The notes under the pieces: model-generated
What the model was told of the DNA's origin: nothing
Database searches by the model: none
Seen by the model: the letters and a program-made list of their open reading frames with translations, nothing else
Part shown: positions 4,110 through 35,535 of the stretch, piece after piece
How positions within the stretch are numbered: position 1 is the stretch's first letter
How the letters are laid out: each line of letters opens with the position of its first letter
Source of the DNA: Escherichia coli
GTDB lineage: Bacteria; Pseudomonadota; Gammaproteobacteria; Enterobacterales; Enterobacteriaceae
Direction: 5' to 3' (one strand)
Assembly: GCF_001677475.2 (NCBI RefSeq)
Contig: NZ_CP015229.1
Length of the DNA stretch: 64,000 nt
Position numbers and translations under genes: made by a program

Positions 4110-4266
4110 AGCTTCAGCCCCTTGTATCCGTTAAATGATTCGGCAACAATCATCACCCACCACGCGCGTAATCTCACCCCTGCGCCGTTCTCCCGCCACG
4201 GCGACAACAAAAAGCAGTAATCCCCTCCGCACGCACATGCGACCATGCCGCACAGGGAGGGAACAG

Positions 4267-5376
4267 ATGACCGACACCACCATGCAATTGCTCAGTCAGG
4301 GCACAGACCCCGTGAAAATGCCGGATTTTGATATTCTCGCGGAGGGTAAAACGCTGTCAGGCGTGGCAGAGCGCCTGATGAGCCTGTCACTGACCGACAA
4401 CCGGGGATTTGAGGCGGACCAGCTCACCATCACGCTGGATGATGCGGATGGTCAGTTGCAGCTACCGCCACGGGGCGTGCGCCTGACGGTTCTCATTGGC
4501 TGGAAAGGAGAACCGCTGACAGAAAAAGGCACTTACATTGTTGATGAAATCGCTCACGAAGGACCGCCGGACAGGCTGACTGTTTCAGCCAGAAGCGCAG
4601 ATTTTCGGGATGAATTTAACGTTAAACGTGAGGTGTCCTGGCATGATGTGACCGTTGAGCGTGTGGTATCCGCCATCGCTCATCGGTACGGTCTGAAACC
4701 GCAAATCAGCGAAATGCTGATGGATATCGAAATCGACCACGCCGACCAGACCGAAGAAAGCGACATGTCCTTCCTTACGCGCATGGCGGAAATGCTGGGC
4801 GCAATCACCACGGTAAAAAGCGGCAATCTGTTATTCATCATGCCAGGTGGTGGCGTGAACGCACAGGGCCAGCCGTTGCCATCGTTCGCCATCACACGCA
4901 GCAGCGGCGATCGCCATCAGTTCCGCATTGCTGACCGCGAGGCGTATACGGGGGTGCGCGCCTACTGGCTTGATCTTAACTATGGGAAAAAGAAAAAAGT
5001 CAGCGTGAAACGCCGCAAACCACCCAAACCGAAAAAGGAGAAAAGCAGCAGCCGCGAAGGTGACTATATGGAAGGTGCGGAAGGCAACGTGTTTGTGTTA
5101 CGCAAGACTTATCAGAACGAGCAGGCAGCAAGACGCGCAGCGGCGGCAAAGTGGCAGCAGCTACAACGCGGAGCCGCATCATTTTCCATCACGCTGGCAC
5201 GTGGACGCGCAGAACTCTACCCCGAAATGCATGGCACAGTAACAGGATTTAAAAGCGAGATTGATAATCAGGACTGGATTATTGCAAAAGCCGAGCACAC
5301 CATTGATAACAGCGGCTTTACCACGCAGCTTGAGCTTGAGGCAAAAATCCCGGAATGGATAGCAGAAACAGAGTGA
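4267..5376 (+). CDS. Phage late control / tail protein D (P2 gpD family)
   Basis: ORF track 4135..5376; probable start at ATG 4267 preceded by GGGAGG; motif SLSLTDNRGFEADQLTITLDDADGQL is typical of the Phage_GPD family. Confidence 0.75.
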   Translation: MTDTTMQLLSQGTDPVKMPDFDILAEGKTLSGVAERLMSLSLTDNRGFEADQLTITLDDADGQLQLPPRGVRLTVLIGWKGEPLTEKGTYIVDEIAHEGPPDRLTVSARSADFRDEFNVKREVSWHDVTVERVVSAIAHRYGLKPQISEMLMDIEIDHADQTEESDMSFLTRMAEMLGAITTVKSGNLLFIMPGGGVNAQGQPLPSFAITRSSGDRHQFRIADREAYTGVRAYWLDLNYGKKKKVSVKRRKPPKPKKEKSSSREGDYMEGAEGNVFVLRKTYQNEQAARRAAAAKWQQLQRGAASFSITLARGRAELYPEMHGTVTGFKSEIDNQDWIIAKAEHTIDNSGFTTQLELEAKIPEWIAETE

Positions 5377-5502: not shown

Positions 5503-6261
5503 ATGTTCAGTTTGTTTTCGTTAACTGCCGGAGCAAATGTGCGCTGGCATGATTTACCTGGTCAGGGTATTCCTGTTGTTTTTATTCATGGACTTGGCTG
5601 TTCCTCTTCTTATGAATATCCACGGGTTGTTGCAGATCCTGTATTTGGTGGACAACGAGCGATATTGATAGATCTCCCTGGATATGGATTCAGTGATAAG
5701 CCTAAAGGATTCGATTACAGCATATCCCATCAAGCTAAGGTTGTTATTGAAGTAGTAGAAACCTTAAATCTCTCACAGTTCCATATTTATGGTCACAGTA
5801 TGGGGGGAAGTATTGCGATTGAAGTAGCCAGACAACTACATGAGAGAACAAGAAAGCTTGTGGTTTCTGAGCCTAATTTTCACTCTGGTGGAGGTACCTA
5901 TAGCCGTAAGATAATAGAGAAGCCAGAAGCAGAGTTTATTTCGCATATATATAATGAATTACTGGAGTGTGAAACATCCCCATGGAAAGGTGAACTCCAG
6001 AATGCAGCCCCATGGGCAATATGGCGAGGAGCCAAAAGTCTGGTTGATGGAACCACTCCATCATGGCGAGATATATTCCTTAATCTGTCCTGTTCACGAA
6101 CACTAATTTTTGGCGAACAATCATTGCCAGATAATGATTTCCAGTATATAAAAGAATCAGGAATATCTGTTGCAATAGTGCCAAACGCCGGACACTCCAT
6201 GTCATGGGAAAACCCATCAGCACTGGCCGAAATTTTACACACAGAATTTTATAAAGAGTAA
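5503..6261 (+). CDS. Alpha/beta-fold hydrolase (probable esterase/lipase-type serine hydrolase); AT-rich cargo gene
   Basis: 252-aa ORF; N-terminal VVFIHGLG, nucleophile elbow GHSMGG, C-terminal NAGHSMSW candidate His; codon usage visibly more AT-rich than the flanking phage genes. Confidence 0.6.
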   Translation: MFSLFSLTAGANVRWHDLPGQGIPVVFIHGLGCSSSYEYPRVVADPVFGGQRAILIDLPGYGFSDKPKGFDYSISHQAKVVIEVVETLNLSQFHIYGHSMGGSIAIEVARQLHERTRKLVVSEPNFHSGGGTYSRKIIEKPEAEFISHIYNELLECETSPWKGELQNAAPWAIWRGAKSLVDGTTPSWRDIFLNLSCSRTLIFGEQSLPDNDFQYIKESGISVAIVPNAGHSMSWENPSALAEILHTEFYKE

Positions 6262-6621: not shown

Positions 6622-6882
6622 ATGTTCCGTTGTCCGCTTTGTGGCGCATCTGCCCGTATCCGCACCAGTCGTCCAGAAAATGATTCAAACACCGTACGGC
6701 AAAAGTATTACCAATGTAACAACCTGGAATGCGGCGTATGCTTCTCAACACTGGAAGCTTTCCATAAATTCACATCGAAACACGCCTCCGGCGCTCACTC
6801 TTCAGAAAGTATCCCGTGGCATGAACTGCCAGCTTCCCACAGAGGAAACAATCAGATGAGTTTGCCCTTACCTCAAAATTAA
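6622..6882 (+). CDS. Ogr/Delta-family zinc-finger late transcription activator
   Basis: 86-aa ORF MFRCPLCGASARIRTSRP...YYQCNNLECGVCFSTLE; the C-x2-C...C-x4-C pattern and MF-CPLC-RTSR motif match P2 Ogr; RBS AGGGAGG upstream. Confidence 0.75.
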   Translation: MFRCPLCGASARIRTSRPENDSNTVRQKYYQCNNLECGVCFSTLEAFHKFTSKHASGAHSSESIPWHELPASHRGNNQMSLPLPQN

Positions 6883-6942
6883 CAGGCAGAATTGCCGGAG
6901 TAACAAAAAAGCGATAGATTACGCGCGGGTGCCTTTCGGCTG

Positions 6943-7206
6943 ATGGTCGGAGGGAATACCCGAAGGCCAGATGTGGAAAGGCCCCGGAAAACATCTCTGT
7001 TTAACCGAGGCCCTAACCGCATTACCTTGACAAGTGAAAGGTTAGCGCCTCTCCGGAAAAGGAGCAAGTGCTATGTCGCAAAAATCGCTTACAGCCATCA
7101 CGTTCTGCGTGACGGCAATCCTCATCATCTGGATGCTACACGGTTCGCTGTGCGAAATACGGATGAGCTTCTGGGGAGCGGAGTTTGCGGCGTTCTTACA
7201 GTGTAA
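6943..7206 (+). CDS. mok-like overlapping reading frame (translational coupler for hok)
   Basis: 87-aa ORF in a different frame that overlaps almost all of the hok-like ORF, as in hok/mok/sok loci. Confidence 0.35.
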   Translation: MVGGNTRRPDVERPRKTSLFNRGPNRITLTSERLAPLRKRSKCYVAKIAYSHHVLRDGNPHHLDATRFAVRNTDELLGSGVCGVLTV

Positions 7207-7213
7207 GCAGTAA
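7073..7213 (+). CDS. Hok/Gef-family type I toxin (46 aa, single transmembrane helix)
   Basis: Hand translation ATG 7073 to TAA 7211: MSQKSLTAITFCVTAILIIWMLHGSLCEIRMSFWGAEFAAFLQCKQ; hydrophobic N-terminal helix followed by SLCEIR and AAFL motifs; RBS GGAG upstream; too short for the ORF track. Confidence 0.6.
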   Translation: MSQKSLTAITFCVTAILIIWMLHGSLCEIRMSFWGAEFAAFLQCKQ

Positions 7214-7302
7214 GGAAACCGCGACGGGGGAGCAATCCCCCGTCAATCGGTTGCCAGGGTAAGGTCGATAAGGCACCCTATCTCACAGACATGAACAACA
7301 AA

Positions 7303-7335
7303 CCCGCAACGTAAAAACTGCGGGTTTTCTTTTTG
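7303..7335 (+). terminator. Intrinsic terminator downstream of the hok-like locus
   Basis: Inverted repeat cccgca...tgcggg followed by ttttcttttt; an additional perfect hairpin gacggggg-agcaat-cccccgtc lies at 7221..7244. Confidence 0.45.
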
Positions 7336-7482
7336 GTGTCCTCACCGACTTGAAACAGTGATCAGACTATAAGACAAAGCCCACAATGTAGCTGGCTTAC
7401 TCCCCTCCCCCCCCACACTAAATGTGGACACATCGTGGAATGAAGAGATATAAAACATTATAAATCAATTGGTTATTGAAAG

Positions 7483-7508
7483 AAAAAAGGCCGCAGAGCG
7501 GCCTTTTT
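7483..7508 (-). terminator. ihfA intrinsic terminator (hairpin flanked by A/T runs on both sides)
   Basis: aaaaaaggccgcagagcggccttttt immediately downstream of the ihfA stop. Confidence 0.55.
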
Positions 7509-7520
7509 AGTTAGATCAGA

Positions 7521-7820
7521 TTACTCGTCTTTGGGCGAAGCGTTTTCGACCCGGCTTTTTAACTTCTGCCCGGGTCTGAAGGTCACCACGCGCCGTGCTG
7601 TAATGGGAATATCCTCGCCCGTTTTCGGGTTACGTCCCGGGCGTTGATTCTTATCACGCAGATCGAAGTTACCAAAACCAGAGAGTTTCACCTGTTCGCC
7701 GTTTTCCAGAGCGCGACGGATCTCTTCGAAAAACAGTTCAACCAGTTCTTTGGCATCCCGCTTGCTAAGCCCAAGCTTATCAAACAGATATTCTGACATT
7801 TCAGCTTTTGTAAGCGCCAT
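7521..7820 (-). CDS. ihfA: Integration host factor alpha subunit
   Basis: 99-aa [91 protein letters not shown]... Confidence 0.95.
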
Positions 7821-7824
7821 AGGT

Positions 7825-10215
<2,391 letters not shown>

Positions 10216-11252: not shown

Positions 11253-11421
11253 TTAGAGCCTATCCCATCAGGCTATTTTACTTGCCATTTTGGTCCCGGG
11301 CAGTGCTCGAAATTCTCACGTACTTAAATACGCTCCGGTTTCTCCGCGCTGGCCGTGTCCAGACTGGCTGCGACAATTACACCTGATGAGACAGGCTTTT
11401 TATTTTTCAAAACGCGCATAC

Positions 11422-11448
11422 AAAAAAAGCCTCCACTGGGAGGCTTTC
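11422..11448 (-). terminator. pheST attenuator terminator
   Basis: Minus-strand hairpin agcctcccagtggaggct followed by a T-run, between pheM and pheS. Confidence 0.6.
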
Positions 11449-11493
11449 AGGCGCTGTTTTCCGTTTCTCTTCTCACGCGCTAGCCTCCTGGAG

Positions 11494-35413: not shown

Positions 35414-35535
35414 CCACAAAACTATGCAAATTCAATATATTGCATGAGTCGAATAGGCCTGACAGGCGTAGCACGTCAGACGGTGTAACCTTTGTCATCA
35501 ACCCGCCTCTTTTTTAATCGCTCCCCGCCTGTTAC

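Follow-up and report, generated by a model that had tools for sequence, protein, structure and literature searches.

An ogr-side attachment arm, most probably of a P2-like prophage, next to the ihfA terminator of Escherichia coli

Introduction

In phage P2 (NC_001895), the attachment site attP is annotated in the order ogr terminator, integrase (Int) P arm, IHF site, core, Cox sites, Int P' arm and int, with a core of 27 bp and an Int P-arm site that reads ATGTGGTCAATGTGTGGACG; the P2-type arm consensus has been given as tgTGGaCa (PMC3448106). A prophage of this kind was described in 2008 in E. coli strain SE11, where the P2-like PP_SE11-4 lies between btuC and ihfA and is flanked by a 25-nt duplication (Oshima et al. 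2008, PMC2608844), so that the integration site is already on record, in a paper that describes no arm anatomy. A third related system is the Peduoviridae phage Chuche (PP925824), which resembles our locus at its hok-ogr end.

Here we analyze the segment 7336-7482 of a 64-kb stretch of E. coli DNA (hereafter the window), which shares with PP_SE11-4 the site, the phage type and the 25-nt duplication as that paper describes them. The window follows the order of P2, with a terminator closing the last gene of the late region, a pair of arm repeats at 11-bp spacing that parallel the annotated P2 site, an IHF site and a core, the distance from arm to core being 56 bp in the window versus 63 bp in P2. 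It departs from P2 in the sequence of the core and the host target, which is here the ihfA terminator, in the presence of hok between ogr and the arm, in some 87 bp of extra filler between terminator and arm repeats (4 bp in P2), and in the integrase of its relatives, only ~48% identical to those of the P2/Wphi group. Over ogr and hok, Chuche matches the window at 96% identity as far as 7341, and immediately upstream of its own integrase it has a region homologous (73% identity) to the hairpin and arm repeats. In Chuche, however, a com and DNA-methyltransferase cassette separates the arm from the hok terminator, CTCTACCTCTCG replaces the C-tract, and both the IHF/core region and the integrase are different. 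We consider it very probable (about 0.9) that positions 7336-7478 are phage DNA, namely the ogr-proximal P arm of attP from a P2-like (Peduoviridae) prophage inserted at the ihfA terminator, which together with the core and the ihfA flank makes up attR (P-O-B'). The segment is an ordinary attR arm at a reported E. coli integration site and is in that sense already known.

Results and discussion

Setting of the segment

The initial annotation had placed this segment between the hok and ihfA terminators, and we located both, one on either side of it (Table 1). The ogr gene marks the right (ogr) end of a P2-like prophage and stands beside the attachment arm, the same placement as that of ogr and attP in P2; hok is the last phage gene ahead of the arm. 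A match to the Rfam sok model at 6927-7086 reaches 48.4 bits, below the gathering score of 59. Between the segment and ihfA, a GC-rich hairpin bordered by runs of A and T spans 7483-7508, within which the ihfA terminator hairpin (GGCCGC-AGA-GCGGCC) occupies 7489-7503. This terminator does not appear in the list returned by the terminator scan, probably because its A/T flanks lengthen the stem and use up the T-run; folding confirms it (-16.1 kcal/mol, z = -6.2, for the core terminator). The segment is non-coding, as had been proposed: its sole open reading frame (ORF), of 38 aa on the minus strand (7342-7458), is unconserved. A small protein was considered for this ORF and rejected because of that lack of conservation, both the start codon and the frame changing among close relatives. 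No tRNA gene was found in the 64-kb window.

Table 1. Coordinates of the features surrounding the segment 7336-7482 in the window
Feature	Position	Strand	Remarks
gpD	4135-5376		left of alpha/beta-hydrolase gene
ogr/Delta-like zinc-finger late activator	6622-6882	+	Pfam PF04606, 52.4 bits
hok/gef-family toxin gene	7073-7213	+	Pfam PF01848, 29.9 bits
hok terminator	stem-loop 7300-7327, T-run to 7334	+	-12.6 kcal/mol, z = -2.3
Phage spacer	7336-7376		conserved among prophages of this group (alignments)
Decayed hairpin AAGCCCACAATGTAGCTGGCTT	7377-7398	-	in relatives a perfect 9-bp stem, then a T-rich minus-strand tail
Pyrimidine tract CTCCCCTCCCCCCCC	7400-7414	+	C8 at 7407-7414, between hairpin and arm repeats
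Arm-type direct repeat TGTGGACA	7423-7430	+	predicted integrase site; 11 bp from the second repeat
Arm-type direct repeat CGTGGAAT	7434-7441	+	predicted integrase site
IHF consensus match AATCAATTGGTTA (WATCAANNNNTTR)	7463-7475	+	between arm repeats and core
att core (common core O) AAAGAAAAAAGGCCGCAGAGCGGCC	7479-7503		stem-loop and U-tract of the minus-strand ihfA terminator
ihfA, host gene	7521-7820	-	Pfam PF00216; 100% identical to K-12 from 7479 on
pheT	7825-10212	-	beyond ihfA

The prophage junction and the duplicated core

When window positions 7000-7900 were compared by megablast with 5,426 complete E. coli genomes, nearly all of them, including K-12, matched solely from 7479 rightward, at 100%, the hok side being also present in 294; the attachment arm is carried by 299 of these genomes (~5.5%). 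The segment differs from the K-12 ihfA-btuC spacer (...ttcgacagtgAAAAGAAAAAAGGCCGCAGAGCGGCCtttttagtt...) and identity begins only at 7479. The suggestion that the prophage junction lies here holds in that the segment is foreign to K-12, but the junction is found at its right end and not at its left. Strain JNE120393 (locus L002) has a 37-kb P2-like prophage between ihfA and btuC. On the ihfA side, its junction is a homologue of the window sequence (98.7% identity over 7000-7900); on the btuC side, the junction reads ...ttcgacagtgaAAAGAAAAAAGGCCGCAGAGCGGCCataaacac..., after which come a 131-aa ORF and the integrase. These two junctions have exactly 25 bp in common, the core AAAGAAAAAAGGCCGCAGAGCGGCC, the direct repeat between attL and attR that the initial annotation had proposed to look for at the other prophage end.

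The core is single-copy in K-12, an empty site, and duplicated at both prophage ends in related lysogens, among them HUSEC2011 and the IMG/VR contig L049, and it is joined to the btuC flank at all 53 IMG/VR attL junctions. It occurs once in the window, which holds the ogr-side end (attR) alone, the duplication being read from the related lysogens. In lysogens, the part of the K-12 spacer to the left of the core sits at the int end, and int is at the btuC end, opposite ogr, in the complete prophages of JNE120393 and HUSEC2011. Since identity with K-12 starts at 7479 and the 25-bp core is present at both ends, positions 7336-7478 are most probably phage DNA, which fixes the right boundary of the prophage: phage sequence to 7478, then the core, then host DNA. 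The att core had been expected within this stretch, possibly in its C-run; it coincides instead with the ihfA terminator and overlaps the interval only in its last 4 bases. Only ~12 kb separate attL from attR in contig L049 (16.4 kb), a spacing that points to a remnant of this prophage type left by deletion.

The arm and core were also found beside other flanks (L062 and L079, both from ETEC1738, as well as L073 and L074), so the arm travels with the phage. In ETEC1738 (~3428.4-3434 kb) and in IMG/VR locus L074, arm and core abut the holin/endolysin lysis region of another prophage (...GCGGCCTTTATGGTTTATTG...), and in L073 they lie at a further, different site. These cases suggest secondary attachment sites at similar terminator hairpins.

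That the segment is instead host DNA, a strain-variable form of the ihfA-btuC spacer with the true phage end at the hok terminator, might be thought from the fact that homology to sequenced phages stops at 7341 (Chuche) and 7334 (P88) and that no phage record has the arm at high identity. We regard this as extremely improbable, given that more than 5,100 genomes with an empty site lack the arm, which occurs only together with the hok/ogr end, that it is seen beside unrelated flanks, that lysogens have the K-12 spacer sequence from the left of the core at their int end, and that the 73%-identical homologue in Chuche lies directly upstream of an integrase. Neither a free phage nor a circular attP with this arm was found among 50,697 phage records or in IMG/VR, and the attP considered here is a reconstruction from attL and attR. 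An attP-specific 28-mer had 0 matches in IMG/VR, where the matches to a looser 23-mer were all integrated attL junctions, and a BLAST search for distant homologues of the arm in phage records returned just the weak match to Chuche and two 30-bp terminator matches.

The integrase encoded at the other end in the relatives is a tyrosine recombinase with Int_N and Phage_integrase domains, 48-51% identical over its full length to integrases of the Wphi/P2 group; the integrase of the ihfA-site prophage type has no counterpart above 56% identity in the 50,697 phage records. Between integrase and attL, these prophages encode the 131-aa ORF without Pfam match (L002 38631-39026; L082 4800-5195), whose 3' end overlaps the int-side arm repeats in the ihfA-site prophages.

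Integrase arm repeats and IHF site

Two short direct repeats in the right third of the segment are candidate integrase arm sites. Both fit the P2-type consensus, CGTGGAAT deviating from it at three of the eight positions (the first, seventh and eighth), and the pattern GTGGA-N6-GTGGA that they form occurs once in the 64-kb window, against 0.04 occurrences expected. The IHF motif is a perfect match, one of two in 64 kb, and this copy is separated from the core by just 3 bases (7476-7478). We aligned twelve attR arms from a BLAST ranking, spread over 89-97% identity. Across them, the GTGGA pentamers are invariant, the IHF motif varies at two of its four N positions and in no other column, and the core is almost invariant. 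In strain 2013C-3033 (L005), the same site is occupied by a P2-like prophage that has diverged further; it retains only arm repeats, IHF site and core, which begin ~25 bp past its hok terminator. The int-side arm of the relatives contains a matching repeat pair, ATGTGGTCACTTTGTGGATCA, and another IHF consensus, AATCAATAAGTTA. Judged from its sequence, the locus has what would be expected of a P2-type attachment arm: location at the ogr end, a duplicated core, putative arm repeats and a predicted IHF site.

By analogy with P2, we infer that the N-terminal domain of the phage tyrosine integrase would bind the direct repeats (7423-7441) and that IHF would bend the DNA at its predicted site, so that the arm-bound integrase could reach the core. 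Strand exchange would then take place within the core, probably to the right of its fourth base, as the attR cores of L005, L076 and L183 carry AAAT where the host has AAAG. Integration rebuilds the ihfA terminator at attR, because the core holds the entire terminator hairpin and T-tract, and it leaves another copy at attL, downstream of int. The two core copies of HUSEC2011 differ in the hairpin loop, which is AGA at attL (L082 4668-4692) and TAA at attR (L060), and a third loop variant, ATA, is present in IMG/VR locus L073; such variants could help to locate the region of strand exchange.

Spacer and decayed hairpin

The left two-thirds of the segment (7336-7419), composed of the spacer, the decayed hairpin and the C-rich tract, are most likely dispensable filler. 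In the relatives, the stem and tail of the hairpin suggest a leftward terminator: the F11 version folds at -18.8 kcal/mol (z = -4.7), whereas that of the window reaches -11.8 kcal/mol (z = -1.3). A functional role could accordingly be imagined for 7336-7419 as a leftward terminator and spacer that protects ogr and hok against antisense transcription reading through from ihfA (in the prophage) or from the C-int operon (in the phage). Besides the strong hairpin and T-rich minus-strand tail of the relatives, the conservation of the hairpin block (0.032 differences per column) speaks for it. We nevertheless find this role doubtful: in the window the stem is mismatched and folds no better than shuffled sequences, the tail TTTGTCTTAT is a weak U-tract, the core terminator is already located upstream of the hairpin, and L005 has no hairpin at all.

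The C8 tract

The initial annotation had drawn attention to the run tcccctcccccccc, which does exist but lies ten bases further left than reported, at 7401-7414 and not 7411-7424. Its C8 is the sole run of eight or more C or G in the 64-kb window; a plain base-composition model expects ~1.6 such runs per window, so that its presence is not beyond chance. A run of seven G is found at 48568-48574.

The block that contains the tract (7400-7419) is the most variable of the arm, with 0.176 differences per column versus 0.013-0.126 in the other blocks, and all indels in the twelve aligned arms are confined to it. As anticipated for a slip-prone homopolymer, the length of the C-run differs between relatives: C8 is found in the window and in JNE120393 (L002), C6 in nine loci, and a sister lineage carries both C7 (L063) and C6, all three lengths occurring among arms at least 95% identical. 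In the remaining relatives the tract is interrupted (CTCTCCCTCC or CTCACCCTCC), and F11 has in its place the same CTCTACCTCTCG as Chuche. In IMG/VR, these variants were sampled with an attR pattern (5 loci) and an arm pattern (11 loci); a gapped pattern applied to metagenome contigs gave mostly chance matches, with at least 7 relevant loci among the matches listed.

Differences in tract length between arms that elsewhere share 95% identity or more, together with the proximity of the tract, which ends 8 bp ahead of the first Int arm repeat, could evoke a contingency (phase-variation) switch acting on a nearby gene or on the efficiency of integration and excision. We consider such a switch very unlikely. 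The tract is within no conserved ORF, the relatives differing in frame and start codon, and no sigma-70-like promoter was detected in 6800-7900. Moreover, many functional-looking relatives have an interrupted tract or, like Chuche and F11, unrelated sequence, L005 occupies the same site without the entire region, and the gap between terminator and arm site in P2 is just 4 bp. Slippage most likely makes the length of the tract drift, with no detectable regulatory role. The C8 run is thereby removed as a candidate for either att core or switch, and beyond annotation the importance of the segment is small.

The STnc540 locus and btuC

The Rfam model STnc540 (RF02082) matches window positions 7427-7579 on the minus strand with 42.8 bits (gathering score 38), only the ihfA 3' end and terminator aligning well. 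In K-12 (L001 1443-1601, minus strand), the model extends from the ihfA 3' end across the terminator and the entire spacer to btuC, with 67.4 bits. The last ~60 model positions fall in the window on phage arm DNA; the prophage replaces them, and the insertion therefore splits this sRNA/leader locus and leaves the phage int operon upstream of btuC. An insertion at the ihfA terminator might consequently have a regulatory cost or benefit, through the split ihfA 3'UTR/btuC leader locus and the position of btuCED directly downstream of the int operon, a possibility to which we assign a low probability. If true, lysogeny would rewire the expression of the vitamin B12 transporter or of a small RNA derived from the 3'UTR of an IHF gene, IHF being the host factor that the phage, by analogy with P2, presumably needs for recombination. 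Even then, the C-tract would still have no role.

Cargo genes and other features of the window

Between gpD and ogr, the window encodes an alpha/beta-hydrolase (5503-6261, plus strand, PF00561), a slot occupied in relatives by a hypothetical protein (JNE120393) or by HxsB/HxsD (ETEC1738), and which looks like a variable cargo position. The com and DNA-methyltransferase cassette of Chuche (L003 1795-2737) corresponds to window positions 7342-7368, in what looks like a second cargo slot adjoining the attachment arm. Elsewhere in the window, the Phe leader upstream of pheST (11420-11544, minus strand, 74.4 bits) and the ES036/CssrF sRNA (35418-35460, plus strand, 38.9 bits) are expected features of the chromosome.
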